Of a stretch of DNA of 64,000 nucleotides, positions 22,865 through 64,000 are shown piece after piece; position 1 is the first letter of the stretch; each line of letters opens with the position of its first letter. A program made the position numbers and the translations under genes. Where the stretch lies: assembly GCF_036370855.1 (NCBI RefSeq), contig NC_088135.1:62001-126000 (forward strand), read 5' to 3'. The DNA is from Dromaius novaehollandiae. Lineage: Eukaryota. Under the pieces are notes generated by a model, which worked only from the letters and a program-made list of their open reading frames with translations, was not told the origin of the DNA and made no database searches.

Positions 22865-25800
22865 GTACGGACCAGTTTGGACCAGTATAAACCAGTATGG
22901 ACCAGTATAAACCAGTATAGACCAGTATAGAGCAGTTTAGACCAGTATAGACCAGTATAGACCAGTATAAACCAGTATAGACCAGTATAGACCAATATGG
23001 GTTGGGGCTCCCTCCCACTGTCCTCCCCAGGCCCCCCAGTGCCCTCCCAGTGCCTCCCAGTATGTCCCAGTGGCTCCCAGTAGCCCCCCCAATATGTCCC
23101 AGTGGGCCTCCAGTGCCGTCCCAGTATGTCCCAGTGTTGTCCAGTACTTCCCAGTATCTCCCAAGGCCGTCCCAGCATCACCCAGTGCCTCCCAGTATCT
23201 CCCAGTCCCCTCCCAGTAGCCCCTAGTGCCCTCCCAGTTCACCCAGTCCCCTCCCAGTGCCTCCCAGGGCCCCCCCAGCTCCCCCCTAGACCCTCCCCAG
23301 TGCCCCCCAGTGCCCCCCAAACCCCCCCCAGTGCCTCCCGGTCCCTTCCCAGTGCCCCCCAGTGCTTCGCAGTGCCTCCCAGTGCCCCCCAGTGCCCCCC
23401 AGACTCTCTCCAGTGCCCCCCAAACCCTCTCCAGTACCTCCCAGTGCCCCCCAGTGCCTCCCAGTGCCCCCCAAGTCCTCTCTAGACCCTCCCCAGTGCC
23501 CTCCCAGTGCCTCCCAGTGCCCCCCAAATCCCCTCTAGACCCTCCCCAGTGCCTCCCAGTGCCCTGCAAGCCCCCCTAGACCCTCCCCAGTGCCTCCCAG
23601 TGCCCTGCAACCCCCCCTAGACCCTCCCCAGTCCCTCCCAGTGCCCCCCAGTGCCTCCCAGTCCCCCCCCAGTGCCTCCCAGTGCCTCCCAGTGTCTCCC
23701 CAGTGCCTCCCAGTGCCTCCCAGTGCCTCCCAGTGCCCCCCAAATCCCCTCTAGACCCTCCCCAGTGCCTCCCAGTGCCCTGCAAGCCCCCCTAGACCCT
23801 CCCCAGTGCCTCCCAGTGCCCCCCAGTGCCTCCCAGTCCTCCCCCAGTGCCTCCCAGTGCCTCCCAGTGTCTCCCCAGTGCCTCCCAGTGCCCCCCAGTG
23901 CCTCCCAGTGCCCCCCAAGTCCTCTCTGGACCCTCCCCAGTGCCTCCCAGTGCCTCCCAGCACCCCCAAGTCCCCTCTAGACCCTCCCCAGTGCCTCCCA
24001 GTGCCCCCCAGTGCCTCCCAGTGCCCCCCATATCCCCTCTAGACCCTCCCCAGTGCCCACCTAGTCCCCCCCAGACCCTCCCCTGTCCCCCCCAGACCCT
24101 CCCCAGTGCCTCCCAGTGCCCCCCAGTGCCTCCCAGTGCCCCCCAAATCCCCTCTAGACCCTTCCAAGTGCCCCCCAGTGCCTCCCAGTGCCCCCCAGTG
24201 CCTCCCAGTGCCCCCCAAGTCCCCTCTAGACCCTCCCCAGTGCCTCCCAGTCCCCCACAGTGCCTCCCAGTGCCTCCCAGTGCCCCCCAGTGACGCCGGC
24301 TCCCCCCCCCACGCAGGAGGGCGCCCCCCGAAGGCCCCGCGGGGCGACGGGGGGGAGGCGGCGCCCTACGAGGACCCCCCCGACCGGCTGACGTCACCGG
24401 GGGGGCAGCGCTTCACCCTCAAGGTGACGTCGTGGAACGTCGACGGCCTCCGCGCCTGGGTGCGCAAGCAGGGCCTGCAGGTGAGCAGGGGCCCAGGCGT
24501 CCGGGAGAGGGGCCCAGGCGTCCGGGAGAGGGGCCCAGGCGTCCGGGAGGGGCCCAGGTGTCCAGGAGAGGGGCTCAGGTGGGCAGGGAGGGGCCCAGGC
24601 GTCCGGGAAAAGGGCCCAGGCGTCCGGGGAGGGCCCAGGCGTCCGGGAGGGGCCCAGGAGTCCGGGGAGGGGCCCAGGCGTCCGGGGAGGGGCCCAGGTG
24701 TCCAGGAAGGGGCCCAGGTGGGCAGGGAGGGGCCCAGGCGTCTGAGTAAAGGGCCCAGGCGTCCGGGTGAGGGTCCAGGCGTCAGGGAAAAGGGCCCAGG
24801 CGTCCAGGAAGGGCCCAGGAGTCTGGGAAAAGGGCCCAGGCATCCGGGAAGGGGCCCAGGCGTCCGGGAGAGGGGCCCAGGCGTCCGGGTGAGGGCCCAG
24901 GCGTCCGGGGAGGGGCCCAGGCATCCAGGAGGGGCCCAGGCGTCCGGGAAAGGGGCCCAGGCGTCCGGGAGAGGGGCCCAGGCGTCCAGGTGAGGGGCCC
25001 AGGTGTCCGGGAGGGGCCCAGGCGTCCAGGAAAGGGCCCAGGCATCCGGGAAAGGGGCCCGGGTGTCCGGGGACGGGCCCAGGCGTCCGGGAGAGGAGCC
25101 CAGGTGTCCGGGGAAGGGCCCAGGCGTCCGGGAGAGGGGCCCAGGCGTCCGGGGAGGGGCCCAGGCGTCCTGGAAGGGTCCCAGGCGTCCTGCCACCCCC
25201 CCCCCGTGTCCCCCCCCCGGCAGTGGGTGCAGGAGGAGGCCCCGGACGTGCTGTGCCTGCAGGAGACCAAGTGCGCGGGGGGGGCGGTGCCCCCGGAGGT
25301 GCGGGCCCTGCCCGGCCTCCCCCACCAGTTCTGGGCCAGCGCCGAGGGCAAGGCCGGCTACAGCGGCGTGGGGCTGCTGGCCCGCCACGAGCCCCTCAGC
25401 GTCACCTACGGCATCGGTGAGTCCCCCCCCGGCCCCCAAAATGCTCCTTTCTGCCCCAAACCGGCGTCGTGCTGCCCCAAAATACTCTTTTGTTACTCCA
25501 AAATACTCTTTTTCTGCTCAAAAACGCTCTTTTCTATCCCAAAATGGCATCGTTGTACCCCAAAACACTCTTTTGTTACTCCAAAATACTCATTTTCTAC
25601 TCAAAAAGGCTTTTTTCTACCCCAAAATGGTGTCGTCGTACCCCAAAATACTCTTTTGTTACTCCAAAATGCTCGTTTCCTGCTCGAAAACGTTCTTTTC
25701 TGTCCCAAAATGGCGGCATCATACCCCAAAAACTCTTTTTTGTTACTCCAAAATACTCTTTTGTTACTCCAAAATACTCTTATCCCGCTCGAAAACGCTC

Positions 25801-28800
25801 TTTTCTGTTCTAAAATGGCGTCGCTGTACCCCAAAATACTCTTGTTACTCCAAAATACTCATTTGTTGCTCCAAAATACTCTTTCCCCGTTCGAAAACGT
25901 TCTTTTCTGTCCCAAAATGGCGTCGTAGTACCCCGAAACTCTCATTTGTTACTCCAAAATACTCATTTTCTACCCAAAAAGGCTCTTTTGTACCCTAAAC
26001 TGGGCTTGTGCTACCCCAAAATGCTCATTTGTTACTCTAAAATACTCTTCCTACTCAAAAACGCTCTTTTCTATCCCAAAATGGTGTCGTACTACCCCAA
26101 AATACTCATTTGTTGCTGCAAAATACTCTTCCCACTTGAAAATGCTCTTTTCTGTCCCAAAATGGCATGGGGCTGCTGGCCCGCCACGAGCCCCTCAGCG
26201 TCACCTACGGCATCGGTGAGTCCCCCCCCGGCCCCCAAAGTGCTCCTTTCTGCCCCAAACCGGCGTCGTGCTGCCCCAAAATACTCCTTTGTTACTCCAA
26301 AATACTCTTTTCCCGCTCGAAAACGCTCTTTTCTATCCCAAAATGGCATCGTTGTACCCCAAAACACTCTTTTGTTACTCCAAAATACTCTTTTCCCGCT
26401 CGAAAATGATCATTTCTATCCCAAAATGGTGGCATCGTACCCCAAAATACTCTTTTGTTACTCCAGAATACTTTTTTCCCGCTCGAAAACGCTCTTTTCT
26501 ATCCCAAAATGGCGTCGTTGTACCCTAAAATACTTTTGTTACTCCAAAATACTCATTTCCTACTCAAAAAGGCTGTTTTCTACCCCAAAATGGTGTCGTC
26601 GTACCCCAAAATACTCTTTTGTTACTCCAAAATACTCTTTTCCCGCTCGAAAAAGTTTTTTTCTGTCCCAAAATGGCGCCATCATACCCCAAAAACTCTT
26701 TTTTCTTACTCCAAAATACTCGTTTGTTACTCCAAAATACTCTTATCCCGCTCGAAAACACTCTTTTCTGTCCTAAAATGGCGTCGCTGTACCCCAAAAT
26801 ACTCTTGTTACTCCAAAATACTCATTTGTTGCTCCAAAATACTGTTTTCCCGCTCGAAAACGCTCTTTTCTATCGCAAAATGGTGTCATCGTACCCCAAA
26901 ATACTCTTTTGTTACTCCAAAATACTTTTTCCCGCTCGAAAACGCTCTTTTCTATCCCAAAATGGCGTCGTTGTACCCCGAAACTCTCATTTGTTACTCC
27001 AAAATACTCATTTTCTACCCAAAAAGGCTCTTTTCTACCCTAAACTGGGCTTGTGCTACCCCAAAATGCTCATTTGTTACTCTAAAATACTCTTCCTACT
27101 CAAAAACGCTCTTTTCTATCCCAAAATGGTGTCGTACTACCCCAAAATACTCATTTGTTGCTGCAAAATACTCTTCCCACTTGAAAATGCTCTTTTCTGT
27201 CCCAAAATGGCATGGGGCTGCTGGCCCGCCACGAGCCCCTCAGCGTCACCTACGGCATCGGTGAGTCCCCCCCCGGCCCCCAAAGTGCTCCTTTCTGCCC
27301 CAAACCGGCGTCGTGCTGCCCCAAAATACTCTTTTCCCGCTCGAAAATGCTCTTTTCTATTCTAAAATGGCGTTGTTGCACCCTAAAATACTGTTGTTAC
27401 TCCAAAATACTCTATTGTTGCTCCAAAATATTCTTTTCCCACTGAAAAATGCTCTTTTCTATCCCAAAATGGTGTCGTCCTACCCTAAAATACTCTTTTG
27501 TTACTGCAAAATTCTTATTTCCTACTCCAAAAGACTCTTTTCTACCCCAAAATGGTGTCATCGTACCCCAAAATACTCCTTTGTTACTCCAAAATATTCT
27601 TTTCCTGGTCGAAAATGCTCTTTTTTGTCCCAAAATGGCATCGTCGTACCCCAAAAACCTCTTTTGTTACTCTGAAATACTCATTTGTTACTACAAAATA
27701 CTCTTTCCCGCTCAAAAATGCTCTTTTCTATCCCAAAATGGCATCGTCATACCACAAAACTCTCATTTGTTACTCCGGAATACTCATTTGTTACTCCAAA
27801 ATACTCTTTCCCACTTGAAAATGCTCTTTTCTATCCCAAAATGGCATCATAGTACCCCAAAATATTTGCTACTCCAAAATACTCATTTGTTACTCCAAAA
27901 TACTCTCTTCCCGCTCGAAAATGCTCTTTTCTATCCCAAAATGGCGTTGTTGTACCACAAAACTCTCATTTGTTACTCCAAAATACTCATTTGTTACTCC
28001 AAAATACTCTTTTCCCGCTTGAAAATGCTCTATTTTATTCCCAAATGGTGTCATAGTACCCCAAAATACGCATTTGTTATCCCAAAATACGCATTTGTTA
28101 CTCAAAAATGCTCTTTTTTACCCCAGACTGGGCTCCTGCTACCCCAAAGTACTCTTTTGTTACTCCAAAATACTCTTTTCTCGCTCGAAAACGCTCTTTT
28201 CTATCCCAAAACGGCGTTGTGGTACCCCAAAATACTCATTTGTTACTCCAAAGTACTCATTTGTTACCCCAAAGTACTCTTTTGTTACTCCAAAATACTC
28301 TTCCCACTCGAAAACGCTCTTTTCTATCCCAAAATAGCATTGTGGTACCCCAAAATACTTATTTGTTACTCCAAAATACTCATTTGTTACTCCAAAGTAC
28401 TCTTTTCCCGCTCAAAAATGCTCTTTTCTGTCCCAAAATGGCGTGATAGTACCCCAAAATACTCGTTTGTTACTCCAAAATATTAATATTCTACTCTAAA
28501 ATGCTCTTTTCTACCCCAAGCTGGCCTCTTGCTGCCCCAAAACACTCCCTTGTTGCCCCAAAATACCCATTTGCCACCCTGAAATACTCTTTTTTGCCCC
28601 AAACTGGCCTCGTAGTACCCTGAAGAACTCATTTGTTACTCAAAAATACTCATTTCCTACCCTAAAATGCTCTTTTCTGTCCCAAACTGGGCTCGTGCTG
28701 CCCTGAAATACTCATTTTGTCCCTCTTCTGCCCCCGTTCCGTCCATCTGCTCCTCTTTCATCCATCTCCTGTTCCATCCATCTCCTGTTCCATCCATCTT

Positions 28801-43755: not shown

Positions 43756-43766
43756 ATGGAGGGAAG
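43756..43766 (+). CDS. PNP: Proposed PNP exon 1 coding part: M E G + AG. Kozak context gaaccATGG, donor AG|gtgcgg
   Basis: No in-frame ATG lies upstream of exon 2, which begins in phase 2. This 11-nt start supplies the AG for a Ser codon and makes the whole CDS a multiple of 3. Human PNP begins MENGYTYEDY; here it would begin MEGSYEAC. The implied intron 1 is about 4.4 kb. Confidence 0.35.
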
Positions 43767-46700: not shown

Positions 46701-49700
46701 GGGTCCCACCATGGGCCCTAGCTCCACTTATGGGTCCCGCCATGGGCCCTGGGTCCATCCATGGGTCCCGCCATGGGTCTTAGGTCCATCTACGGGTCCC
46801 ACCATGGGTCCTAGTTCCACTTATGGGTCCCACCATGGGTCCTGGGTCCACTTACGGGTCCCGCTATGGGTTCTAGCTCCACTTATGGGTCCCGCCATGG
46901 GTCCTGGGTCCATCCATGGGTCCCACCATGGGTCCTAGCTCCACTTATGGGTCCCGCCATGGGTCCTGGGTCCATCTGTGGGTCTCACCATGGGTCCTAG
47001 CTGCACTTATGGGTCGTGTTATGGGTCCTAGCTCCACTTATGGGTCCCGCCATGGGTCCTGGGTCCATCTATGGGTCCTGGGTCCATCCATGGGTCTTAC
47101 TATGGGTCCTGGGTCCACTTATGGGTCACACCATGGGTCCTGGGTCCACTTATGGGTCCCGCTATGGGTCCTGGGTCCACTTATGGGTCCCGCCATGGGT
47201 CCTGGGTCCATCCATGGGTCCCACCATGGGTCCTAGCTCCACTTATGGGTCCCACTATGGGTCCTAGCTCCACTTATGGGTCCCACTGTGGGTCCTAGCT
47301 CCACTTATGGGTCACGCTATGGGTCCTGGGTCCATCCATGGGTCCCGCCATGGGTCCTAGCTCCACTTATGGGTCCCGCCATGGGTCCTGGCTCCACTTA
47401 TGGGTCCCGCCATGGGTCCTAGCTCCACTTATGGGTCCCGCCATGGGCCCTAGCTCCACTTATGGGTCCCGCCATGGGTCGTAGCTCCACTTATGGGTCC
47501 CGCTATGGGTCCTGGGTCCACTTATGGGTCCCGCCATGGGTCCTGGGTCCATCCATGGGTCCCACCATGGGTCCTGGGTCCATCCATGGGTCCCGCCATG
47601 GGTCCTAGCTCCACTTATGGGTCCCGCCATGGGTCCTGGGTCCACTTATGGGTCCCGCCATGGGCCCTGGGTCCATCCATGGGTCCCACCATGGGTCCTG
47701 GCTCCACTTATGGGTCCTGCTATGGGTCCTGGGTCCATCTATGGGTCTCACCATGGGTCCTAGCTCCACTTATGGGTCCCGCTATGGGCCCTAGCTCCAC
47801 TTATGGGTCCCGCCATGGGTCATAGGTTCATCTACGGGTCCCACCATGGGTCCTGGGTCCACTTATGGGTCCTGCCATGGGTCCTGGGTCCATCTATGGG
47901 TCCCGCTATGGGTCCTAGCTCCACTTATGGGTCCCGCCATGGGCCCTAGGCCTCCCCACCCAACCCCACGCCCCCCCCACCGCCCCGTCCCACCACCGCC
48001 GCCGCCCCCCGCCGCCCCCCCGCCCCCCCTTCCCGCCCCCCCCACGGCCCCACGGCCCCCTAGACCCCATAACACGTCTCCGTGGGGCCGGGGGTCTCAC
48101 GGGGGGTCTTTTTTTGGGGGTCTTTTTTTTGGGGGGGGGCAGCTACGAGGCCTGCGCGGCGGCGGCGGCCTGGGTGGCCGAGCGGGCTGGGGGGCCGCCC
48201 CCCACTTTGGGCCTGGTCTGCGGCTCCGGCCTGGGGGCCTTGGCCGAGGGGCTGAGCCGGCCCCAGAGCTTCGACTACGCCGAGCTGCCCCACTTCCCCC
48301 GCAGCACCGGTGAGCGGGGACTGGGAGGGACTGGGAGGGGCTGGGAGGCTGCTGGGGGGCAACTGGGAGCGGCTGGGGGGTGATTGGGGGTGACTGGGAG
48401 GTGCTGGGGGGTGATTGGGAAAGACTGGGAGGTGCTGGGGGGCAACTGGGAGCGACTGGGAGGTGCTGGGGAGCGACTGGGAGGTGCTGGGGGGAGACTG
48501 GGAGCGACTGGGGGGTGATTGGGAGCAACTGGGAGGTGTTGGGGGGTGATTGGGGGTGACTGGGAGTGACTGGGGGGCAACTGGGAGTGACTGGGAGGTG
48601 CTGGGGGGCAACTGGGAGCGACTGGGGGGTGATTGGGAGTGACTGGGAGGTGCTGGGGGGCAACTGGGAGCAACTGGGGGGCGATTGGGAGCGACTGGGA
48701 GGTGCTAGGGGGTAATTGGGAGCGACTGGGAGGTGCTAGGGGGTAACTGGGAGCGACTGGAGGGTGATTGGGAGCAACTGGGAGTGACTGGGGGGTGATT
48801 GGGAGTGACTGGGAGGTGCTGGGGGGTGACTGGGAGCGACTGGGGGGTGATTGGGGGTGACTGGGAGTGACTGGGGGGCGATTGGGGGTGACTGGGAGGC
48901 GCTCGGGGGCGACTGGGAGGTGCTGGGAGGCTGCTGGGGGGCAACTGGGAGCGGCTGGGGGGTGATTGGGGGTGACTGGGAGGTGCTCGGGGGCGACTGG
49001 GAGTGACTGGGAGGTGCTTGGGGGCGACTGGGAGCGACTGGGGGGCCGTTGGGAGCAACTGGGAGGTGCTGGGGAGCGACTGGGAGGTGCTGGGGGGTAA
49101 CTGGGGCGACTGGGGGGTGATTGGGAGTGACTGGGGGGTGATTGGGAGTGACTGGGAGGTGCTGGGGGGCGACTGGGAGTGACTGGGAGGTGCTGGGGGG
49201 CAACTGGGAGCGACTGGGGGGCGATTGGGAGCGACTGGGAGGTGCTGGGGGGAGACTGGGAGCGACTGGGGGGTGATTGGGAGCAACTGGGAGCGACTGG
49301 GGGGTGATTGGGGGTGACTGGGAGGTGCTGGGGGGGGATTGGGAGCAACTGGGAGGTGCTGGGGGGCAACTGGGAGGTGCTGGGGGGCAATTGGGAGTGA
49401 CTGGGAGGTGCTCGGGGGCAACTGGGAGCAACTGGGAGGTGCTGGGGGGCAACTGGGAGGTGATTGGGAGCGACTGGGAGGTGCTGGGGGGCAACTGGGA
49501 GCAGCTGGGGGGTGATTGGGGGTGACTGGGAGTGACTGGGGGGCGACTGGGAGCGACTGGGAGGTGCTGGGGGGCAACTGGGAGCGACTGGGGGCTGATT
49601 GGGAGCAACTGGGAGGTGCTGGGGGGCGATTGGGAGCAACTGAGAGTGACTGGAGGGTGATTGGGAGCAACTGGGACGTGCTGGGGGGTGACTGGGAGTG

Positions 49701-52700
49701 ACTGGGGGGTGATTGGGAGTGACTGGGAGGTGCTCGGGGGCGACTGGGAGTGACTGGGGGGCATTTGGGAGCAACTGGGAGGTGCTGGGGAGCGACTGGG
49801 AGGTGCTGGGGGGTAACTGGGAGTGACTGGGAGGTGCTGGGGGGCAACTGGGAGTGACTGGGAGGTGCTGGGGGGCAACTGGGAGCAACTGGGGGGCGAT
49901 TGGGAGCAACTGGGAGGTGCTGGGGAGCGACTGGGAGGTGCTGGGGGGCAACTGGGAGCGACTGGGGGGTGATTGGGAGCAACTGGGAGGTGCTGGGGGG
50001 TGATTGGGGGTGACTGGGAGGTGCTGGGGGGTGATTGGGAGCGACTGGGAGGTGCTGGGGGGCGACTGGGAGCAACTGGGAGGTGCTGGGGGGTGATTGG
50101 GAGCAACTGGGAGGTGCTGGGGGGCGACTGGGAGCAACTGGGAGGTGCTGGGGGGTGATTGGGAGCAACTGGGAGGTGCTGGGGGGTGATTGGGAAAGAC
50201 TGGGAGGTGCTGGGGGTGATTGGGAGCAACTGGGAGTGACTGGGAGGTGCTGGGGAGCGATTGGGAGTGACTGGGAGGTCCTGGCGGGTGATTGGGAGCG
50301 ACTGGGAGTGACTGGAGGGGGATTGGTAGTGACTGGGAGGTGCTGGGGGGTAACTGGGAGCAACTGGTGGCAACCGGGAGGTCCTCGGGGGTCCTGGGGG
50401 GTAACTGGGAGGTCCAGGGGGGTAACTGGGTGGACTGAGGGGGCAACTGGGAGCAACTGGGTGCAACTGGGAGGCCCTGGGGGGCAACTGGGAGCAATTG
50501 GGAGGTCCTGGGGGGCCACTGGGAGGTCCTGGATGACAACTGGGGGCAACTGGGAGCAACTGGGGGGCAACTGGGAGCAACTGGGGGCCACTGGGAGGTC
50601 TTGGGGGGCAACTGGGGGCCTTAGGGGGCAACTGGGAGCAACTGGGTGGCCCTGGGGGGTCCTAGGGGCAACTGGGGAGCAACTGGGAGCAACTGGGTGG
50701 CCCTGGGGGGTCCTAGGGGCAACTGGGGGGCAACTGGGAGCAACTGGGTGGCCCTGGGGGGTCCTAGGGGCAACTGGGGGGCAACTGGGGAGCAACTGGG
50801 TGGCCCTGGGGGGTCCTAGGGGCAACTGGGGGGCAACTGGGAGCAACTGGGCGGCCCTGGGGGTCCTAGGGGCAACTGGGGGGCAACTGGGAGCAACTGG
50901 GAGGCCCTGGGGGGTCCTAGGGGCAACTGGGGGGCAATTGGGAGCAACTGGGCGGCCCTGGGGGGTCCTAGGGGCAACTGGGGGGCAACTGGGAGCAACT
51001 GGGTGGCCCTGGGGGCAACTGGGGGGCAACTGGGAGCAACTGGGCAGGCCTGGGGGGTCCTAGGGGCAACTGGGGGGCAACTGGGAGCAACTGGGCGGCC
51101 CTGGGGGTCCTAGGGGCAACTGGGGGGCAACTGGGAGCAACTGGGAGGCCCTGGGGGGTCCTAGGGGCAACTGGGGGGCAATTGGGAGCAACTGGGCGGC
51201 CCTGGGGGGTCCTAGGGGCAACTGGGGGGCAACTGGGAGCAACTGGGTGGCCCTGGGGGCAACTGGGGGGCAACTGGGAGCAACTGGGCAGCCCTGGGGG
51301 GTCCTAGGGGCAACTGGGGGGCAACTGGGAGCAACTGGGCGGCCCTGGGGGCAACTGGGGGGCAACTGGGAGCAACTGGGCGGCCCTGGGGGGGCCTAGG
51401 GGCAACTGGGGGGCAACTGGGAGGCAACTGGGAGCAACTGGGCGGCCCTGGGGGGTCCTAGGGGCAACTGGGGGGCAATTGGGAGCAACTGGGCGGCCCT
51501 GGGGGGTCCTGGGGGCAACTGGGAGCAACTGGGAGCAACTGGGCAGCCCTGGGGGGTCCTAGGGGCAACTGGGGGGAACTGGGGGGCAACTGGGAGCAAC
51601 TGGGGGGTCCTAGGGGCAACTGGGGGGCAACTGGGGGGCAACTGGGAGCACCTGGGAGGCCCTGGGGGGTCCTAGGGGCAACTGGGAGCAACTGGGTGGC
51701 CCTGGGGGGTCCTAGGGGCAACTGGGGGGCAACTGGGAGCAACTGGGCGGCCCTGGGGGGTCCTAGGGGCAACTGGGGGGCAACTGGGAGGCAACTGGGA
51801 GCAACTGGGGGGTCCTAGGGGCAACTGGGGGGCAACTGGGGGGCAACTGGGAGCAACTGGGTGGCCCTGGGGGGTTCTAGGGGCAACTGGGGGGCAACTG
51901 GGAGCAACTGGGCGGCCCTGGGGGGTCCTAGGGGCAACTGGGGGGCAACTGGGAGCAACTGGGAGGCCTCAGAGGGGAGCTGAAACATGGCGCTGGGTGC
52001 TGCTAGCACACGCGTGACCTTAGCGTGTGCTTAGCGTGTGCGGGGTGCTAGTGGCACAGAGGGGGAGCGGCCGCACACGCGTGGCCTTAGCGTGTGCTTA
52101 GCGTGTGCGGCGGCTCCTCCCGCGCTGGGGGGGGCCGCTGTGACATCAGCACACGCGTGTGCTTAGCGTGTGCGGGATGCTAGGGGCACAAAGCGGGGGG
52201 GGAGGCGGCACACGCGTGGGCTTAGCGTGTGCTTGGCGTGTGCGGCGGGCCCGGGACGGGCTGGGGGGGCGGCGGGGGGGCTGGGGGGGGGGGTGGGGGC
52301 GCACGCGTGACCTTGGCGTGTGCTTGGCGTGTGCAGTGCCGGGCCACGCGGGGCGGCTGGTGCTGGGCTGGTTGGGCGGCTGCCGCTGCGCCGTGCTGCA
52401 GGGCCGCTTCCACCTCTACGAGGGCTACAGCCCCGCCCAGGTGCGCCCGGACGCCGGGGCCCCTTTCTGGGACGCCTGGGCCCCTTCCTGGGATGCCTGG
52501 GCCCTTTTCCCGGACACCTGGGCCCCTTTCCCGGACGCCTGGGCCCTCTCCCGGACGCCTGGGCCCCTCTCCCGGACGCCTGGGCCCTCTCCCGGACGCC
52601 TGGGCCCCTCTCCCGGACGCCTGTTCCCCTCTCCCGGACGCCTGGGCCCCTCATCCCGGACGCCGGGGCCCCTTTCCCGGACACCTGGGCCCTTTCCCGG

Positions 52701-55700
52701 ATGCCTGGGCCCTTTCCCGGACACCTGGGCCCCTTCCTGGGACGCCTGGGCCCCTTTCCCGGACGCCTGGGCCCTCCCGGACGCCTGGGCCCCTTCCCTC
52801 GATTCCTGCCCCCTTTCCCAGACGCCTGTTCCCCTCTCCCAGACGCCTGGGCCCTTTCCCGGACGCCTGGGCCCCTTCCCTCGATTCCTGCCCCCTCTCC
52901 CGGACGCCTGGGCCCTTTTCCCGGACGCCTGGGCCCCTTCCCTTGATTCCTGCCCCCTCTCCCGGACGCCTGGGCCCCTTTCCCGGACACCTGGGCCCCT
53001 CCCGGACGCCTGGGCCCCTTCCCTCGATTCCTGCTCCCTCTCCCGGACGCCTGGGCCCCTCCCCGGACGCCTGTTCCCCTCTCCCGGACGCCTGGGCCCT
53101 TCCCTGGACGCCTGGGCCCCTTCCCTCGATTCCTGCCCCCTCTCCCAGACGCCTGGGCCCCTCTCCCGGACGCCTGGGCCCCTTCCCTCGATTCCTGTTC
53201 CCTCTCCCGGACGCCTGGGCCCCTCCCGGACGCCTGGGCCCCTTCCCTCGATTCCTGCCCCCTCTCCCGGACGCCTGGGCCCTCCCGGACGCCTGGGCCC
53301 CTCTCCCCGACACCTGGGCCCCTTTCCCGGACACCTGGGCCCCTTCCCTCGATTCCTGCTCCCTCTCCCGGACGCCTGGGCCCCTCTCCCGGACGCCTGT
53401 TCCCCTCCCGGACGCCTGTTCCCTTTCCCGGACGCCTGGGCCCCTTCCCTGGACGCCTGTTCCCCTCCCGGACGCCTGTTCCCTTTCCCGGACGCCTGGG
53501 CCCCTTCCCGGACGCCTGGGCCCCTTCCCTCAATTCCTGCCCCCTTTCCCGGACGCCTGGGCCCCTCCCCGGACACCTGGGCCCCTCCCGGATGCCTGGG
53601 CCCTTCCCCGGACACCTGGGCCCCTTCCCTCGATTCATGCCCCCTCTCCCAGACGCCTGGGCCCCTTCCCCGGACGCCTGGGCCCCTCCCTGGACACCTG
53701 GGCCCCTCTCCCGGACGCCTGGGCCCCTTCCTTCAATTTCTTTTCCCTTTCCCGGACGCCTGTTCCCCTCCCGGACGCCTGGGCCCCTCCCCGGACGCCT
53801 GTTCCCCTCCCGGACGCCTGGGCCCTCCCGGACGCCTGGGCCCTTTCCCGGACGCCTGGGCCCCTCCCGGACGCCTGGGCCCCCCTCCCTTCCCCGCGCA
53901 GGTGGCGATGCCCGTGCGGACGCTGCGGCTCCTGGGCGCCCGGACGCTGCTGCTGACCAACGCTGCCGGCAGCCTCCGGCCCGACCTGACGCCCGGCGAC
54001 TTGCTGGTGCTGCGCGACCACCTCGACCTGCCCGGCCTGGCCGGACGCAGCCCCCTGGCCGGCCCCAACGACGAGCGGTGCGTGAGCCGGGGGCCCAGGC
54101 GTCCGGGAGGGGGGAACAGGCGTCCGGGAGGGGGGAACAGGCGTCCGGGAAAGGGACCTAGGTGGTTGGGAAGGGGCCCAGGCGTCCAGGAAAGGGGCCC
54201 AGGCGTCCGGGAGGGGAACAGGCGTCCGGGAGGGGAACAGGAATCAAGGGAAGGGGCCCAGGTGTCTGGGAAAGGGCCCAGGTGTCCGGGGAGGGGCCCA
54301 GGCGTCCGGGAAAGGGGCCCAGGTGTCCGGGAAAGAGGGGCCCAGGCGTCCGGGAGAGGGCCCAGGCGTCCGGGAAAAGGGCCCAGGTGTCCAGGAAAGG
54401 GAACAGGTGTCCGGGGAGGGCCCAGGCGTCCGGGAAAGGACCCAGGCGTCCGGGGAAGGGGCCCAGGCGTCCGGGAGGGGCCCAGGCGTCCGGGAGGGGC
54501 CCAGGCGTCCGGGAAAAGGGGCCCAGGCGTCCGGGAAAAGGGCCCAGGCGTCCGGGAGGGGAACAGGAATCAAGGAAAGGGGCCCAGGCGTCCGGGAGGA
54601 GGGCCCAGGCGTCCGGGGAGGGGAACAGGCGACCGGGGAGGGGAACAGGCGTCCGGGAGGGGGGAACAGGCGACCGGAACGAGGGGCCCAGGCGTCCGGG
54701 AGAGGGGAACAGGCGTCCGGGAAAAGGGGCCCAGGCGTCCGGGAGAGGAGCCCAGGCGTCCGGGAGAGGGAACAGGCATCCGGGAAAAGGGCCCAGGCGT
54801 CCGGGGAGGGACCTAGGTGGTTGGGAAGGGGCCCAGGCGTCCGGGAGAGGGCCCAGGCGTCCGGGAGGGGAACAGGAATCAAGGGAAGGGGCCCAGGCGT
54901 CCGGGAAAGGGGCCCAGGCGTCCGGGAGAGGGGAACAGGCGTCCGGGAAAGGGGCCCAGGCATCCGGGAAGGGGCCCAGGCATCCGGGAAAAGGGGCCCA
55001 GGCGTCCGGGAAAAGGGCCCAGGCGTCTGGGAGGGGAACAGGAATCAAGGAAAGGGGCCCAGGCGTCCGGGAAAGGGCCCAGGCGTCCGGGGAAGGGGCC
55101 CAGGTGTCCGGGAAAGGGGCCCAGGCGTCCGGGAAAGGGAACAGGCGTCCGGGAAAGGACCCAGGCGTCCGGGAAAGGAGCCCAGGCGTCCGGGAGGGGC
55201 CCAGGCGTCCGGGAAAGGGGCCCAGGCGTCCGGGAGAGGGAACAGGCATCCGGGAAAAGGGCCCAGGCGTCCGGGGAGGGACCTAGGTGGTTGGGAAGGG
55301 GCCCAGGCGTCCGGGAGAGGGCCCAGGCGTCCGGGAGGGGAACAGGAATCAAGGGAAGGGGCCCAGGCGTCCGGGAAGGGGCCCAGGCGTCCGGGAAGGG
55401 GCCCAGGCGTCCGGGAAAGGACCCAGGCGTCCGGGAAAGGAGCCCAGGCGTCCGGGAGGGGCCCAGGCGTCCGGGAAAGGGGCCCAGGCGTCCAGGTGAA
55501 GGGCCCAGGTGTCCGGGAAAGGGGCCCAGGCATCCGGGAGAGGGAACAGGCGTCCAGGAAAAGGGCCCAGGCGTCCGGGAGGGGCCCAGGCGTCCGGGGA
55601 GGGGCCCAGGCGTCCGGGGAGGGGCCCAGGCGTCCGGGAAAAGGGCCCAGGCGTCCAGGAAAGGGGCCCAGGCGTCCGGGGAAAGGGCCCAGGCGTCCAG

Positions 55701-58700
55701 GACAAGGGCCCAGGCGTCCGGGTAAAGAGCCCAGGCGTTCCAGAAAAGGGCCCAGGCGTCCGGGAGAGGGACCTAGGTGGTTGGGAAGGGGCCCAGGCGT
55801 CCGGGAAAGGGACCCAGGCGTCCGGGAGAGGAGCCCAGGCGTCCCGTGACCCCCGTGTCCCCCCCGCCCAGGTTCGGGCCCCGCTTCCCGGCGGTGGCGG
55901 GCGCCTACGACGCGTCGCTGCGGGCCCTGGCGCTGCGGCTGGCGGCCCGGGTGGCCCCCGAGCTCCGGGCCCGGCCCGGCGTCTACTGCGGCGTCGGCGG
56001 CCCCGGCTACGAGACGGCCGCCGAGGGCCGCTTCCTGCGCCGCGCCGGCGCCGACGCCGTCGGTGAGCCCTAATTACCGAGCAGTTCCCCTAATTAGCTT
56101 GCAATTAGCTCTCTGCACCGTTGCAATTAATGTGCATGCTCGTAAGCTTGCAGTGATCTCGTTGCACCATTGCAATTAGCGTGCACGCTCGTTAACTTGC
56201 AATGACCCTGTTGCACCATTGCAATTAGCGTGCACGCTCGTTAGCTTGCAATGATCTCGTTGCACCATTGCAATTATCGTGCACGCTTGTTAGCTTGCAA
56301 TGACGTCATTGCAGCATTGCAATTAGCGTGCACGCTCGTTAGCTTGCAATTAGCTCTTTGCACCATTGCAATTAATGTGCATGCTAATTAGCTTGTAATG
56401 ACCCTGTTGCACCATTGCAATTAGCGTGCATGCTCGTTAGCTTGCAATGATCTCGTTGCACCATTGCAATTAGCGTGCACGCTCGTTAGCTTGCAATGAT
56501 CTCGTTGCACCATTGCAATTAGCGTGCACGCTCGTTAGCTTGCAATTACCCTGTTGCACCATTGCAATTACTCATTTGCACCATTGCAATTAGCGTGCAT
56601 GCTCGTTACCTTGCAATTAGTTCATTGCACCATTGCAATTAATGTGCATGCTCATTAGCTTGCAATCGCCCTGTTGCACCATTGCAATTAGCCCTTTGCA
56701 CCATTGCAATTAGCGTGCACGCTCATGAGCTTGCAATTAGCTCATTGCACTATTGCAATTAGCGTGCACGCTCATTAGCTTGCAATTATCTCATTGCACC
56801 ATTGCAATTAATGTGCATGCTAATTAGCTTGCAATCACGCCGTTGCACCATTGCAATTAGTGTGCACGCTCATTAGCTTGCAGATAGCTCATTGCACCAT
56901 TGCAATTAATGTGCATGCTAATTAGCTTGCAATGACCTCATTGCAGCATTGCAATTAGCGTGCATGCTAATTAGCTTGCAATGATGCCTCTGCACCATTG
57001 CAATTAGCGTTCTAATTAGCATGTAATTAGCACATGGAGGGCTTGCAATTAGCATGCAGTTAGCATGTAATTACCCCAAGCAGCACCTAGCGAGCGCATA
57101 ATTAGGAGATAATTAGCATGCGATCTGCATCTAATTAGCATACGCTGAACCTGCAAGAAGTCTTTAATTAGGAGATGATGCTAATTAGGGTTGATGAGTT
57201 AGCGTGTAATTAGCGTGTTGTTAGCGTGTAGGGCAGCAGGAAGCTCTTGGCTAATTAGGATGTGGCTCTGCTTAAAATTAGCAAGTAATTAGCATGTAAT
57301 TAGCATGTAATCAGTGCATAATTGGCATGTGGTTAGTGTGTAATTAGCATGTAATTAGCATGTAGTTAGCATATAATTAAGTTATGGTGAGTGTGCAATT
57401 AGCATGTAGTTAGTATGTAATTAAGCTATAGCTAGCGTGTAATTAGCATGCGATTAGCATGTGATTAACATGCAATTAGTGTGTGATTAGCATCTAATTA
57501 GCATATAATTAAGAGCTTAGCGTGTAATGAGCGTGCACGCAGGCCGTAATTAGCCCGCGGCCTGTGACGAGCGTGGCCTTGGCGTGTGCTTAGCGTGTGC
57601 TAGGGCTCTGCGTGCTGCTGGCGTGCGATTTGCATGTGATTTGCGTGTGATTTGCATGTGATTTGCATGTGATTTGCATGCTCTTTGCTTGCACTTTGCA
57701 CCCCCCTTGCACCCTCCTTGCACCCACTTAGCACCGTCCTTGCACCCTTGATGCAGCCAGTTAGCACCCTCGTTGCACACTCATTGCACCCACTTAGCAC
57801 TGAGTTAGCACCCCCCTTGCACCCCCCTTGCACCCCCCTTGCCCCCTCCTTGCACCCTCGTTGCACCCTCCTTGCACCCTCGTTGCACGCTCCTTGCATG
57901 CTCCTTGCACCCACTTAGCACCCACTTAGCACCTGCCTTGCACCCTTGATGCAGCCACTTAGCACTCTCGTTGCACCCACTTAGCACCCACTTAGCACCC
58001 ACTTAGCACCCACTTAGCACCCACTTAGCACCCCCCTTGCACCCTCGTTGCACCCTCTTTGCACCCACTTAGCACCCCCCTTGCACCCTCCTTGCACCCT
58101 CCTTGCACCCTCCTTGCACCCTTGATGCACCCACTTAGCACCCTCGTTGCACCCACTCAGCACCCACTCAGCACCCCCCTCGCACACTCATTGCACCCTC
58201 CTTGTACACTCATTGCACCCACTCAGCACCCACTCAGCACCCACTTTGCACCCACTCAGCACCCACTTAGCAGCCACTTTGCACCCCCCTTGCACGCTCC
58301 TTGCACCCACTCAGCACCCACTCAGCACCCTCCTTGCACACTCCTTGCACCCACTTAGCACCCACTTAGCACCCCCTTGCACACTCATTGCACCCCCTCA
58401 GCACCCACTCAGCACCCCCTCAGCACCCACTTAGCACCCCCCTTGTACCCCCCCCTTGCACACTCATTGCACCCCCTCAGCACCCCCTCAGCACCCCCTC
58501 ACCCCCCCCTTTGCCCCCCCCCGGCACCCACGCTCCCACCCGCCCCCCCCAGGCATGAGCACGGTGCACCCACTCAGCACCCCCCTCGCACCCCCCCAGC
58601 ACCCCCTCAGCACCCCCTCAGCCCCCCCCCCTTTGCCCCCCCCCGGCACCCACGCCCCCGCCCGCCCCCCCAGGCATGAGCACGGTGCACCCACTCAGCA

Positions 58701-60459
58701 CCCACTCAGCACCCACTCAGCACCCACTTAGCACCCACTCAGCTCCCACTTAGCACCCACTCAGCTCCCACTTAGCAGCCCCCTCGCACACTCATTGCAC
58801 CCCCCTTGCACCCACTCAGCACCCACTCAGCACCCCCTCGTTGCACCCCCCTTGCACCCCCCTTGCACCCTCCTTGCACCCTCCTTGCACCCCCCTTGCA
58901 CCCTCCTTGCACCCTCCTTGCACCCCCCTTGCACACCCCTTGCATCCTCCTTGCACACTCGTTGCACCCACTTAGCACCCCCCTTGCACCCCCCTTGCAC
59001 CCCCCTTGCACCCACTTAGCACCCACTTAGCACCCACTTTGCACCCCCTCAGCACCCCCTCAGCACCCCCTCACCCCCCCTTCAGCACCCCCTCAGCACC
59101 CCCTCAGCACCCCCTCAGCACCCACTTAGCACCCCCCTCGCCCCCCTCCGCACACCCCCGCCCCCGCCCGCCCCCCAGGCATGAGCATGGTGCACCCACT
59201 CAGCACCCACTTAGCACCCCCCTTGCACCCCCCTTGCACCCCCCTTGCACACTCATTGCACCCCCATTGCACCCCCCTTGCACCCCCTTGCACCCACTCA
59301 GCACCCACTTAGCACCCACTTAGCACCCTCCTTGCACCCTTGATGCAGCCACTTAGCACTCTCGTTGCACCCACTTAGCACCCTCCTTGCACCCCCCTTG
59401 CACCCCCCTTGCACCCCCCTCGCACCCCCCTCGCACCCTCGTTGCACCCTCGTTGCACCCTCATTGCACCCCCTTGCACCCCCTCAGCACCCACTTAGCA
59501 CCCCCCTTGCACCCCCCTTGCACCCTCATTGCACCCACCTTGCACCCCCCCTCACCCCCCCCTTTGCCCCCCCCCGGCACCCATGCCCCCGCCCGCCCCC
59601 CAGGCATGAGCATGGTGCACCCACTCAGCACCCACTCAGCACCCACTTAGCACCCACTCAGCACCCCCTTGCACCCCCCTTGTACCCCCTCCTTGCACCC
59701 TCCTTGCACCCTCCTTGCACCCACTTTGCACCCACTCAGCACCCCCTTAGCACCCCTTCTTTGCACCCCCCTTGCACCCCCCTCAGCACCCCCTCAGCAC
59801 CCCCTTGCACCCCCCCTCAGCCCCCCCTCGCCCCCCCCAGCACCCACTTTGCACCCCCTCGTTGCACCCCCCTTGCACCCCCATTGCACCCCCCCAGCAC
59901 CCATTGAGCACCCCCTCAGCACCCCCCTTGCACCCCCCCCTTGCACCCCCCTTGCACCCTCCTTGCACCCTCCTTGCACCCACTTAGCACCCACTTTGCA
60001 CCCCCCTTGTACCCCCCCTTGCACCCCCCTTGCACCCACTCAGCACCCCCTCAGCACCCCCTCAGCACCCTCCTTGCACCCCCCTTGCACCCTCCTTGCA
60101 CCCACGCCCCCCCGCCCCCCCCAGGCATGAGCACGGTGCACGAGGCGGTGGCCGGGCGCCACTGCGGCCTGCGGCTCCTGGGGCTCTCGCTCATCACCAA
60201 CATGGCCGCCGGCGCCACCCACGACGGTGACGATGACGACGGTGACGACGGTCACGACGGGGACGACGACGGGGGCCACGACGCGGTGCTGGCGGCCGCC
60301 CGACGCGCCGTCACCCCGCTGCGGGCCCTGCGCGACGCCCTGGCCCGGCACCTGGCCCGCGAGGAGGAGGAGGAGGAGGCCGAAGGCCGCCGTGACGGTG
60401 ACGACGGTGACGGTGACGATGGCGACGAGGAGGAAGGGCGGCGCCGAGAGGCCGCCTGA
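43756..60459 (+). CDS. PNP: PNP (purine nucleoside phosphorylase), complete CDS in 6 exons, 327 aa
   Basis: MEG|[56 protein letters not shown]|[35 protein letters not shown]|[59 protein letters not shown]|[13 protein letters not shown]...[22 protein letters not shown]|[25 protein letters not shown]... This is collinear with human PNP. Exon lengths 11+167+104+176+191+335 = 984 nt, in frame. Confidence 0.85.
45040..47940. repeat. About 31 bp satellite (ATGGGTCC CGCCATGGGTCCTGGGTCCATCT...), 2.9 kb, in the proposed PNP intron 1
   Basis: Highly regular tatgggtcccgccatgggtcctgggtccatccatgggtcccaccatggg; every unit carries a CCATGG (NcoI site, ATG in Kozak-like context). Confidence 0.95.
48143..48309 (+). 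CDS. PNP: PNP exon 2: (S)[55 protein letters not shown](V)
   Basis: Acceptor ggggggggcag|C TAC, donor ACC G|gtgagcg, 167 nt. Confidence 0.8.
48310..51960. repeat. ACTGGGAG(C/G)(G/A) / GGTGCTGGGGGG satellite (reverse-orientation member of the CTCCCAGTG family), 3.6 kb, PNP intron 2
   Basis: gggaggtgctggggggcaactgggagcgactgggg... Confidence 0.95.
52337..52440 (+). CDS. PNP: PNP exon 3: (V)[34 protein letters not shown]
   Basis: Acceptor gtgtgcag|TG, donor CAG|gtgcgc, 104 nt. Confidence 0.85.
53902..54077 (+). CDS. PNP: PNP exon 4: [58 protein letters not shown](R)
   Basis: Acceptor tccccgcgcag|GTG, donor GAG CG|gtgcgt, 176 nt. Confidence 0.85.
55872..56062 (+). CDS. PNP: PNP exon 5: (R)[63 protein letters not shown](G)
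   Basis: Acceptor cccgcccag|G TTC, donor GTC G|gtgagc, 191 nt. Confidence 0.85.
56070..57550. repeat. AT-rich TAATTA-containing tandem repeats (about 60 bp unit cattgcaattagcgtgcacgctcgttagcttgcaatga; then gcatgtaattagc units) in PNP intron 5
   Basis: More than 60 TAATTA/AATTAG cores; base composition differs sharply from the flanks. Confidence 0.9.
57600..57690. repeat. Five tandem copies of (G)TGATTTGCAT(G), the octamer motif ATTTGCAT
   Basis: gcgtgcgatttgcatgtgatttgcgtgtgatttgcatgtgatttgcatgtgatttgcatgctc. Confidence 0.8.
57700..60120. repeat. 11 bp satellite CCCACT(T/C)AGCACC / CCCCCTTGCACC, with four embedded copies of the PNP exon-6 acceptor plus start (pyrimidine tract, CAG, GCATGAGCA(C/T)GGTGCAC)
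   Basis: The copies lie at about 58546, 58668, 59170 and 59591. The genuine acceptor is at 60113-60124. Confidence 0.9.
60125..60459 (+). CDS. PNP: PNP exon 6 (terminal): (G)[110 protein letters not shown]
   Basis: Acceptor ccccccccccag|GC ATG, TGA at 60457-60459. Contains Asp/Gly and poly-Glu coding repeats that are absent from human PNP. Confidence 0.85.
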
Positions 60460-60479: not shown

Positions 60480-61560
60480 GGCCCAGGCGTCCGGGTGCCT
60501 TGACCCCACCCCGATCCCCTCCCCCACCCCAAAAGGGGCCCAGGCATCCGGGTGACCCCCCCCCCATCCCCCACCGCAAGGGGCCCAGGCGTCCGGGACC
60601 CCCCAATCTAACCCATCCCCCACCCAAAGGGCCCAGGCGTCCGGGTGCCTTAACATCCGCCCATCCCCCACCCCAAGGGGCCCAGGCGTCCGGGTGACCC
60701 CCAATCTAGCCCATCCCCCACCCAAGGGGCCCAGGCGTCCGGGACCCCCAATCTAGCCCATCCCCCACCCAAGGGGCCCAGGCGTCCGGGACCCCCAATC
60801 TAACCCATCCCCCACCCAAGGGGCCCAGGCGTCCGGGTGACCCCCAATCTAGCCCATCCCCCACCCCAAGGGGCCCAGGCGTCCGGGACACCCAATCTAA
60901 CCCCTCCCCCACCCCAAGGGGCCCAGGCGTCCGGGTGACCCCCAATCTAGCCCATCCCCCACCCCAAGGGGCCCAGGCGTCCGGGACACCCAATCTAACC
61001 CCTCCCCCACCCCAAGGGGCCCAGGCGTCCGGGACCCCCTAGGACCAACCCCCCCCATCCCATCCCCCACCCAAAGGGGCCCAGGCGTCCGGGTGCCTTA
61101 ACATCCGCCCATCCCCCACCCCAAAAGGGGCCCAGGCGTCCGGGACCCTCCAGCCAACCCCATCCCCCACCCCAAAGGGCCCAGGCGTCCGGGACCCCCA
61201 ATCTAACCCCTCCCCCACCCCCCAGGGGCCCAGGCGTCCGGGACCCCCCAATCTAACCCATCCCCCACCCAAAGGGCCCAGGCGTCCGGGTGCCTTAACA
61301 TCCGCCCATCCCCCACCCCAAGGGGCCCAGGCGTCCGGGTGACCCCCTAGGACCAACCCCCCATCCCATCCCCCACCCCAAAAGGGGCCCAGGCGTCCGG
61401 GACCCCCTAGGACCAACCCCCCATCCCATCCCCCACCCGAGGGGCCCAGGCGTCCGGGACCCCCAATCTAACCCCTCCCCCACCCCAAAAGGGGCCCAGG
61501 CGTCCGGGACCCTCCAGCCAACCCCTCCCCCACCCCAGGGGCCCAGGCGTCCGGGCCCCC
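60480..61560. repeat. About 45 bp tandem repeat of about 22 copies starting 20 nt after the PNP stop (AAGGGGCCCAGGCGTCCGGG(T/A)(G/C)ACCCCCAATCTAACCCATCCCCCACCC)
   Basis: A hybrid of the core minisatellite and a C-rich CCCATCCCCCACCCC spacer. Confidence 0.9.
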
Positions 61561-61599
61561 CCCAAGGACCAACCCCCCATCCCCCCCCCAGGGCGATTA

Positions 61600-62950: not shown

Positions 62951-64000
62951 GGTCGTTAGGGGCCGGCGGCTGACGAGGACCAAGCAGTTAATTAGCGCCG
63001 CGCGGCTAATTGCCCCCCCCCGCCCCTCCCCCGCTTTGGGTTTATTTAAAGGCAATAAAAGACTCGAGTTAATTAACGGTGACTTAATTACGGGCCGCGG
63101 TTGGGGGGGGGAGGGGAGGGGGCCCAGGCGTCCGGGTTTGGGGGGGGGGTTGGGGCAGCCGGACGCCTGGGCCCCTTGTTGGGGGGTGGGGGGGGTGAGG
63201 GAGGGCCCACGGCAGTGCCCGGACGCCTGGGCCCCTTTTCCCGGACGCCTGGGCCCCTTTCCCGGACGCCTGGGCCCCTTCCCGGACGCCTGGGCCCTCT
63301 CCCGGACGCCTGGGCCCCTTTCCCGGACGCCTGGGCCCCTCGTCCCGGACGCCTGGGCCCTTTTCCCGGACGCCTGGGCCCCTTCCCGGACGCCTGGGCC
63401 CCTCACCCGGACGCCTGGGCCCCTTTCCCGGACACCTGGGCCCTTTTCCCGGACGCCTGGGCCCCTTCCCGGACGCCTGGGCCCCTTCCCCGGACGCCTG
63501 GGCCCCTCTCCCGGACACCTGGGCCCCTCACCCGGACGCCTGGGCCCCTTTCCCGGACGCCTGGGCCCTTTTCCCGGACACCTGGGCCCCTTTTCCCGGA
63601 CACCTGGGCCCCTTTCCCGGACACCTGGGCCCCTTTTCCCGGACACCTGGGCCCCTCCCGGACGCCTGGGCCCCTTTCCCAGACGCCTGGGCCCTTCACC
63701 CGGACGCCTGGGCCCCTTTCCCGGACGCCTGGGCCCCTCTCGGACACCTGGGCCCTTTTCCCGGACGCCTGGGCCCCTCCCTGGATGCCTGGGCCCCTTC
63801 CCGGACGCCTGGGCCCCTCTCGGACGCCTGGGCCCCTCTCGGACGCCTGGGCCCCTTTCCCGGACGCCTGGGCCCCTCCTGGACACCTGGGCCCTTTCCC
63901 GGACGCCTGGGCCCTTCACCCGGACGCCTGGGCCCCTCCCGGACGCCTGGGCCCTTCTCCCGGACGCCTGGGCCCCTCCCGGACGCCTGGGCCCTTCACC

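Follow-up and report, generated by a model that had tools for sequence, protein, structure and literature searches.

The enzyme purine nucleoside phosphorylase (PNP), familiar from textbooks, is also a drug target, and the loop formed by its residues 240 to 256 is treated as fixed in length. This loop (human numbering) has been described as a gate through which ligands enter (PMC4308819). A second described system concerns gene structure: genes on the dot chromosomes of chicken display "sequence stuttering" and "exon stuttering" with intact coding regions (PMC12954441). Here we describe the PNP gene of the emu, Dromaius novaehollandiae, within a window of 64,000 nucleotides (contig NC_088135.1, positions 62,001 to 126,000; all coordinates below are those of the window). 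The last exon of this gene carries two acidic repeat tracts, one inside the gate loop and the other at the C terminus. They are real but largely ordinary, a tolerated coding repeat in an annotated enzyme; what is unusual is the position in the gate loop.

Compared with the trimeric human and bovine enzymes (PDB 1RR6, 1ULA, 7ZSO, and 1A9O), emu PNP has the same fold (TM-score of about 0.90), 46 to 47% sequence identity, and the same active-site residues. Its gene likewise consists of six coding exons with canonical splice sites. It differs in having a gate loop of 25 rather than 13 residues, 11 of them Asp, a 32-residue acidic C-terminal extension, and Tyr in place of Phe200. Its core is also strongly basic: without the tracts the protein has a net charge of +10 and an isoelectric point (pI) of 9.8, compared with a charge of about -2 in mammals. 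Other avian PNPs (cormorant, gull, sea eagle, cuckoos, parrots, passerines, and pigeon) are the same GC-rich ortholog, and those of neognaths bear a variable acidic insert at the same loop. Ostrich PNP (XP_068777948.1) shares the acidic terminal tail with the emu protein, whereas the (G/D)n segments that a GAC-GGT unit encodes in both the loop and the tail of emu PNP have no counterpart in ostrich. The closest parallel outside birds is PNP of the lamprey Lampetra fluviatilis (P0074), in which the segment between Asn243 and His257 has expanded independently into a 35-residue loop rich in Asp, Glu, and Gly. The lamprey protein, however, belongs to a distant lineage; its loop still begins with the ancestral MDYG, and its core is neutral rather than basic.

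The emu locus resembles the stuttering chicken genes (PMC12954441) in that its introns consist almost wholly of local tandem arrays and duplicates of an exon edge, splice site included, are scattered in the adjacent intron. It departs from them in that codon-compatible repeats are found inside a coding exon, at two sites, and in that the species is a palaeognath. In addition, some of the arrays are not of local origin, since several genes share a 21-nt satellite, present in both orientations, in their introns. PNP-directed full-text searches and keyword checks in papers on avian GC-rich genes returned no description of a loop insert in avian PNP or of charge compensation, an absence that is not proof.

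Acidic repeats in the terminal exon of emu PNP

Six coding exons, all separated by GT..AG introns, join to give a product of 327 amino acids that matches RefSeq XP_064359464.1 (purine nucleoside phosphorylase, Dromaius novaehollandiae) exactly. RefSeq already contains the gene model, and the bare feature is known to databases. Exons 2 to 6 were located by five colinear tblastn matches to a human PNP query, and exon 1 was located by a pattern search. Residues 7 to 245 of the query were confirmed by PDB alignment, against which the human residue numbering used here was also checked. An AG acceptor occupies positions 60123 to 60124, making 60125 the first base of exon 6. The initial annotation had read 60125 to 60459 as the terminal PNP exon, and the six-exon model bears this out; the translation is as it had claimed and stays in frame to the stop codon.

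Both tracts in this exon are absent from human PNP and, as had been proposed, are encoded by repeats (Tandem Repeats Finder periods of 9, 15, and 24, together with (GAG)6). Tract 1 holds an array of period 9 with 5.7 copies (60221-60268) and another of period 24 (60221-60283). Tract 2 holds an array of period 15 with 2.4 copies and 90% matches (60392-60427), in addition to the (GAG)6 run, which was read directly off the sequence. The unit GACGGTGACGA, allowing at most one mismatch, is present in eight copies in the 64-kb window, all eight of them inside the two tracts; the number expected from shuffles is 0.27, and none of 100 shuffles reached eight. Further, a 21-nt segment is common to both tracts at 95% identity. 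The acidic tracts in emu PNP are thereby confirmed as real and beyond chance.

Each tract is in frame and has a length divisible by three. Relative to the 289 amino acids of human PNP, the emu protein gains 12 residues in the loop and 27 after His257, in agreement with the roughly 40 added residues counted in the initial annotation. Emu PNP shows two hallmarks of a coding repeat, tandem units at the DNA level that are multiples of three and length differences among orthologs between aligned flanks. Tract 1 (taken here as 60217-60285, residues 248 to 270) is broken up by His-Asp pairs, and its composition recalls that of divalent-metal-binding peptides.

We also considered whether tract 1 is a hidden canonical intron. 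There is no AG dinucleotide anywhere in 60202 to 60290, so tract 1 is not an unrecognized GT-AG intron, and mRNA-type contigs from other birds keep their inserts.

The codons of the tracts differ from those of the rest of the gene. The GC content of third codon positions (GC3) is 0.75 to 0.80 in the tracts versus 0.978 over the 275 other codons of emu PNP. All of the GGT (six), GAT (two), and GAA (two) codons in the coding sequence lie within the tracts. Codons ending in A or T account for 12 of 52 in the tracts versus 6 of 275 elsewhere (Fisher p = 7e-7), and among Gly codons GGT is used six times in the tracts and never outside them (Fisher p = 9e-5). In three other birds, too, GC3 is lower in the loop than in the remaining codons. 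A GC-biased origin, which had been offered as a possible explanation, is contradicted by these counts, as no other part of the coding sequence has so low a GC3 as the tracts. Because the tract codons are low in GC3 and include every GGT, GAT, and GAA codon, they carry the signature of recent slippage or local template switching of a GAC-GGT-GAC unit, and not of compositional drift through GC-driven substitution.

Fold, function, and distribution of the loop and tail

Tract 1 lies inside the gate loop and precedes both the catalytic His257 and the C-terminal helix that spans residues 257 to 284 (human numbering). The tracts had been described as lying near this helix; they do flank it, but tract 1 is in the substrate gate loop itself (240 to 256) and not merely close to the helix. 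The AlphaFold2 (AF2) model of emu PNP has a mean predicted local distance difference test (pLDDT) score of 89.6 and a predicted TM-score (pTM) of 0.88, and its top Foldseek matches are human PNP structures, with target-normalized TM-scores of 0.88 to 0.92. Tract 1 is modeled as coil, with block-mean pLDDT values of 54 (residues 251 to 260) and 64 (residues 261 to 270). In tract 2, the model extends the C-terminal helix through the Glu run, with block means of 66 to 76 over residues 311 to 327.

The rest of the protein retains what a working PNP needs. There is a precomputed match to Pfam PF01048 (PNP_UDP_1), and phmmer aligns the protein to human PNP chains with E = 9e-83. Ser33, His64, Arg84, His86, Tyr88, Ala116, Phe159, Glu201, Met219, Ser220, Thr242, Asn243, and His257 are all kept; these phosphate, ribose, and base contacts are invariant in an alignment of 37 sequences, with the exception of Ser33, which is at least 90% conserved. 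Every feature that could be tested (domain, contacts, and fold) places emu PNP among the trimeric PNPs of the NP-I fold. Across the catalytic core, the ratio of nonsynonymous to synonymous substitution rates (dN/dS, Nei-Gojobori) between emu and three other bird coding sequences is 0.23 to 0.37, and a core range of 0.19 to 0.37 was also obtained. These values indicate purifying selection, with some relaxation or with an upward shift from extreme codon bias. Since the catalytic machinery is intact, emu PNP is presumably an active trimeric enzyme. The earlier judgment that this is not a pseudogene agrees with the conserved catalytic residues, the core dN/dS, and the RefSeq-identical model.

To place the emu loop among other PNPs, we measured its length between the invariant Asn243 and His257 in the best 120 homologs. 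Of the 85 non-bird PNPs, which come from fish, amphibians, turtles, and mammals, 74 have a loop of exactly 13 residues. A lizard protein (P0125, named PNP-like) and three turtle PNPs have the 13-residue loop. In ten of the 11 exceptions the loop length is 11, 14, or 23 residues; apart from one fish, these are for the most part unnamed proteins of metagenomes or bacteria. The remaining exception is the lamprey enzyme. The lamprey expansion is convergent with that of birds and occurs in a jawless vertebrate, whose coding sequence is presumably GC-rich too.

In the 29 bird proteins, the loop ranges from 13 to 40 residues, with a median of 28. Ostrich is the sole bird with the ancestral 13-residue loop and its LDYE motif, and the other 28 have acid-rich loops of 16 to 40 residues. 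The inserts are alike in composition (Asp, Glu, and Gly) but not in sequence, and they have no conserved motif. Public RNA-type contigs from three bird lineages (L001/L002, L003/L004, and L005-L008) each hold an uninterrupted PNP open reading frame (ORF) that includes the insert. Because the ORFs of these intronless contigs retain them, the inserts occur in mature mRNA of the three lineages.

Two irregularities were seen among these bird sequences. In the Logan contigs L005-L008, which carry the P0020 ORF, PNP is fused to differing unrelated genes (Rab11-FIP3, UXS1-like, and RabGAP-TBC); they look like chimeric transcript assemblies and were used to show an intronless PNP ORF and nothing more. 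In the RefSeq models of whooping crane (P0017) and macaw (P0012), the frame is lost right after the acidic loop tract and the models lack His257 and the C-terminal helix, reflecting either an assembly frameshift in the repeat or real inactivation.

The tail has a narrower distribution than the loop insert, as an acidic C-terminal tail is common to emu and ostrich only. Emu is the only bird among the 29 in which an acidic tail accompanies an expanded loop, and ostrich is the only other palaeognath found. A search with exons 5 and 6 minus their acidic parts returned short fragments only and no further palaeognath (cassowary, kiwi, rhea, or tinamou). When the exon 6 peptide alone was used as the query, low-complexity words swamped the search, which gave two matches and missed the emu protein itself. 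The comparison with related species that the initial annotation had called for has a divided outcome: nearly all birds carry an acidic insert in the same loop and ostrich has the tail, but the ostrich loop is 13 residues long. Judged from these alignments, the loop expansion is not special to the emu genome. It is a bird-wide tendency with an emu-lineage-specific realization, and the tail is at least as old as the common ancestor of emu and ostrich.

Charge balance and competing explanations

To examine the charge of the tracts in relation to the rest of the enzyme, we compared the core (emu residues 5 to 242 and 268 to 295) with the loop plus tail in 26 birds and 86 non-birds. The core has a mean net charge of +4.0 in birds and -1.9 (standard deviation [SD], 2.9) in non-birds. 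For the loop plus tail, the corresponding values are -8.8 and -2.6, and the totals are -4.8 and -4.5 (SD, 3.3). Gly, Ala, Arg, and Pro make up 43% of the bird core versus 29% of the non-bird core, and the bird core has about 5 fewer Asp and Glu residues with an equal number of basic residues.

Core and tract charge are strongly and inversely related across the 26 birds (Spearman rho = -0.82, p = 3e-7). Removing emu, ostrich, and goose in turn leaves rho at -0.78 to -0.81. On a neighbor-joining tree, independent contrasts are correlated at r = -0.78 (p = 3e-6), and of the 18 that are informative, 15 are opposite in sign. Partial correlations are -0.77 with Gly/Ala/Arg/Pro content controlled and -0.78 with tract length controlled, and tract length alone correlates weakly (rho = 0.38). 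As a control, core segments set against the rest of the core gave rho values of -0.04 to -0.33, none of them significant.

Individual species illustrate the relationship. In emu, a core of +10 is set against -11 in the loop and -13 in the tail, the tracts together contributing -24; the protein has a net charge of +9 to +10 without the tracts and of -14 to -15, with a pI of 5.1, when they are included. Among the 26 birds compared, emu ranks first both in the basicity of its core and in negative total charge. Ostrich combines a core of +5 and the ancestral loop with a tail of -11, and goose, with a core of -2, has a small and weakly acidic loop.

Taken together, we consider it highly probable that exon 6 is genuine and that it contains two slippage-made acidic tracts at permissive sites, with charge offset most probably behind their retention. 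A short GAC-GGT-GAC unit, along with a GAG run, would have been amplified by slippage or local template switching in a repeat-prone, GC-rich locus. The tracts would then have persisted at two sites of the fold that can accommodate extra disordered chain, the solvent-exposed gate loop and the free C terminus; such tolerance is suggested by the length variation in birds and lamprey and by the low pLDDT. The bird core gained in Gly, Ala, Arg, and Pro content, lost about 5 Asp and Glu residues, and acquired a net positive charge. Based on the phylogenetically corrected correlation, the negative charge of the tracts most probably offsets this acquired positive charge. The correlation is evidence, though not a demonstration, that the tracts have been retained partly for restoring net negative charge. 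More tentatively, and with a likelihood that we place slightly short of even, the tracts may be selected charge ballast, kept in proportion to the acid deficit of the core and holding a vertebrate net-charge set-point. GC-biased evolution in repeat-rich avian microchromosomal regions would in that case strip Asp and Glu from the core, and tracts made by slippage would subsequently be retained. A search on GC-biased conversion and protein charge in birds returned no description of charge compensation, although absence there is no proof.

Several observations weigh against charge compensation. The emu total of -14 overshoots the vertebrate mean of -4.5 (SD, 3.3), and compensation cannot explain the full size of the emu tracts. 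Lamprey fits only loosely, with a core of 0 and tracts of -9. The tree used for the contrasts was built by neighbor joining from the same core sequences and covers 26 species only, several of the bird models were predicted computationally and include some of poor quality, and the exact emu repeat counts rest on one assembly. A hidden shared driver beyond the protein-level covariates, such as local repeat or GC pressure, could also be behind the correlation. Such a driver is central to a neutral account, in which the tracts are a by-product of slippage and a single GC or repeat process causes both core acid loss and tract growth without selection on charge. We regard this account as possible but rather doubtful. 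It is consistent with the hypervariability of tract sequence and length even between closely related birds, with a locus saturated with tandem arrays, with an emu protein that lies beyond any charge optimum, and with the weak correlation between Gly/Ala/Arg/Pro content and tract charge (rho = -0.45). However, mutation bias in a gene of 79% GC should yield poly-Ala, poly-Gly, or poly-Pro, whereas the tracts are Asp and Glu runs with A/T-ending codons. The correlation is moreover specific to charge, surviving the controls for Gly/Ala/Arg/Pro content and for length, and the mean total charge of birds lands on that of non-birds.

Two further explanations concern what the inserts do and whether they exist. 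A larger acidic gate loop might have been selected as catalytic tuning, altering how substrate or phosphate gains access, or how the loop moves, in keeping with the very high purine flux of birds, which excrete uric acid. The location of tract 1 within the proposed ligand gate (PMC4308819), directly ahead of His257, and the near universality of the insert in Neognathae speak for this idea, but the 13-residue loops of ostrich, the lizard, and the three turtles, the sharing of composition without any conserved motif, and the similar insert in lamprey make it improbable. An artefact, whether mis-assembly, a retained intron, a decaying pseudogene, or an alternative 3' exon in the real transcripts, is more improbable still. 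GC-rich repeat regions are hard to sequence (PMC6792250), the frameshifts that follow the tracts in the crane and macaw models suggest that the tracts are error-prone, and there are four decoy acceptors in intron 5. Against this, the emu frame stays open across both tracts, on into the conserved helix of His257 and as far as the stop codon, the tract 1 region lacks AG, and the same kind of insert is found in more than 25 independently assembled birds and in three mRNA-type contig sets. The core is also under purifying selection with its catalytic residues intact, and use of the 59596 decoy would give a truncated product lacking Asn243 and His257.

The repeat-rich locus and its wider meaning

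Emu PNP spans 16.7 kb for a coding sequence of 984 nt and lies on a contig of 987,576 bp. Upstream of it, tblastn with human queries places OSGEP, APEX1, and PIP4P1/TMEM55B (Table 1). The gene order at human 14q11.2 is OSGEP-APEX1-PIP4P1-PNP in the same orientation as in emu; on that basis, the emu gene is the PNP ortholog and not a paralog.

Table 1. Positions of PNP exons, acidic tracts, neighboring genes, and repeats in the 64-kb emu window (residues in human numbering)
Feature	Position	Strand	Details
PNP exon 1	43756..43766	+	11 nt, ATG GAG GGA AG = M-E-G plus two bases of a Ser codon; donor GTGCGG
PNP exon 2	48143..48309	+	phosphate-site GSG motif (Ser33); AG acceptor, GTGAGC donor
PNP exon 3	52337..52440	+	His64, Arg84, His86, Tyr88; tblastn
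PNP exon 4	53902..54077	+	TNAAG motif; tblastn
PNP exon 5	55872..56062	+	Phe159, Glu201; Tyr replaces human Phe200; tblastn
PNP exon 6, terminal coding exon	60125..60459	+	Met219, Ser220, Thr242, Asn243, His257, all conserved; TGA at 60457-60459
Acidic tract 1	60217..60276	+	imperfect 9-nt repeat (GAC GGT GAC type) in the gate loop between Asn243 and His257
Acidic tract 2, C-terminal extension	60359..60456	+	(GAG)6, then 15-nt GAC/GGT repeat, then GAG GAG GAA
Decoy copies of PNP exon 6 acceptor	58539-58569, 58665-58690, 59171-59195, 59596-59620	+	blastn-short and alignment
OSGEP	~13.9-21.7 kb	-	tblastn
APEX1	24.3-30.3 kb	+	tblastn
PIP4P1/TMEM55B	36.1-41.6 kb	-	tblastn
GGCCCAGGCGTCCGGG arrays (examples)	3722-4598, 54090-55844, 60516-61561	+	
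GGCCCAGGCGTCCGGG arrays (examples)	6498-7145, 52446-53889, 63218-63994	-	

According to Tandem Repeats Finder, 85.5% of the window lies in tandem arrays. Masking leaves 30 blocks of at least 120 nt, and many of these correspond to coding exons of OSGEP, APEX1, PIP4P1, and PNP; each PNP intron is filled with arrays of 10-, 11-, 21-, or 49-nt units. The four decoys in intron 5 lie inside an array of TTGCACCCCCC, and each consists of a poly-C tract, AG, and the first 17 to 18 nt of exon 6. All four could serve as cryptic 3' splice sites; that at 59596, the only one that was translated, gives the truncated product mentioned above. A comparable arrangement is seen in APEX1, where the 3' part of the exon at 25221-25421 recurs as two near-identical partial copies (26161-26223 and 27206-27268) in the downstream intron, which is another case of exon stuttering.

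The most abundant repeat is a satellite of about 21 nt with the core GGCCCAGGCGTCCGGG, which has 747 copies (at most one mismatch) in both orientations versus 0.03 expected. Its arrays are spread over 3722 to 63994 and make up about a quarter of the window by our estimate. They occur in PNP introns and elsewhere, with opposite orientations in introns 3 and 4, and the translated repeat was also picked up by tblastn within the OSGEP and PIP4P1 spans. The satellite is a dispersed family and not a purely local expansion.

These results show that the length of the PNP gate loop is not fixed: birds and, independently, lamprey add up to 27 acidic residues to it with every catalytic residue kept. Bird and lamprey loops therefore constitute natural experiments on gate dynamics. 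In addition, the intron instability known from chicken dot-chromosome genes also shapes coding sequence here, in a palaeognath. The balance between core and tracts suggests that compensatory low-complexity inserts buffer GC-driven amino acid drift. If true, such buffering would help to explain how fast-evolving, GC-rich avian genes stay functional, and if general, it may amount to a rule by which "hidden" GC-rich proteins of birds remain soluble and keep their function, as well as a source of lineage-specific disordered regions.

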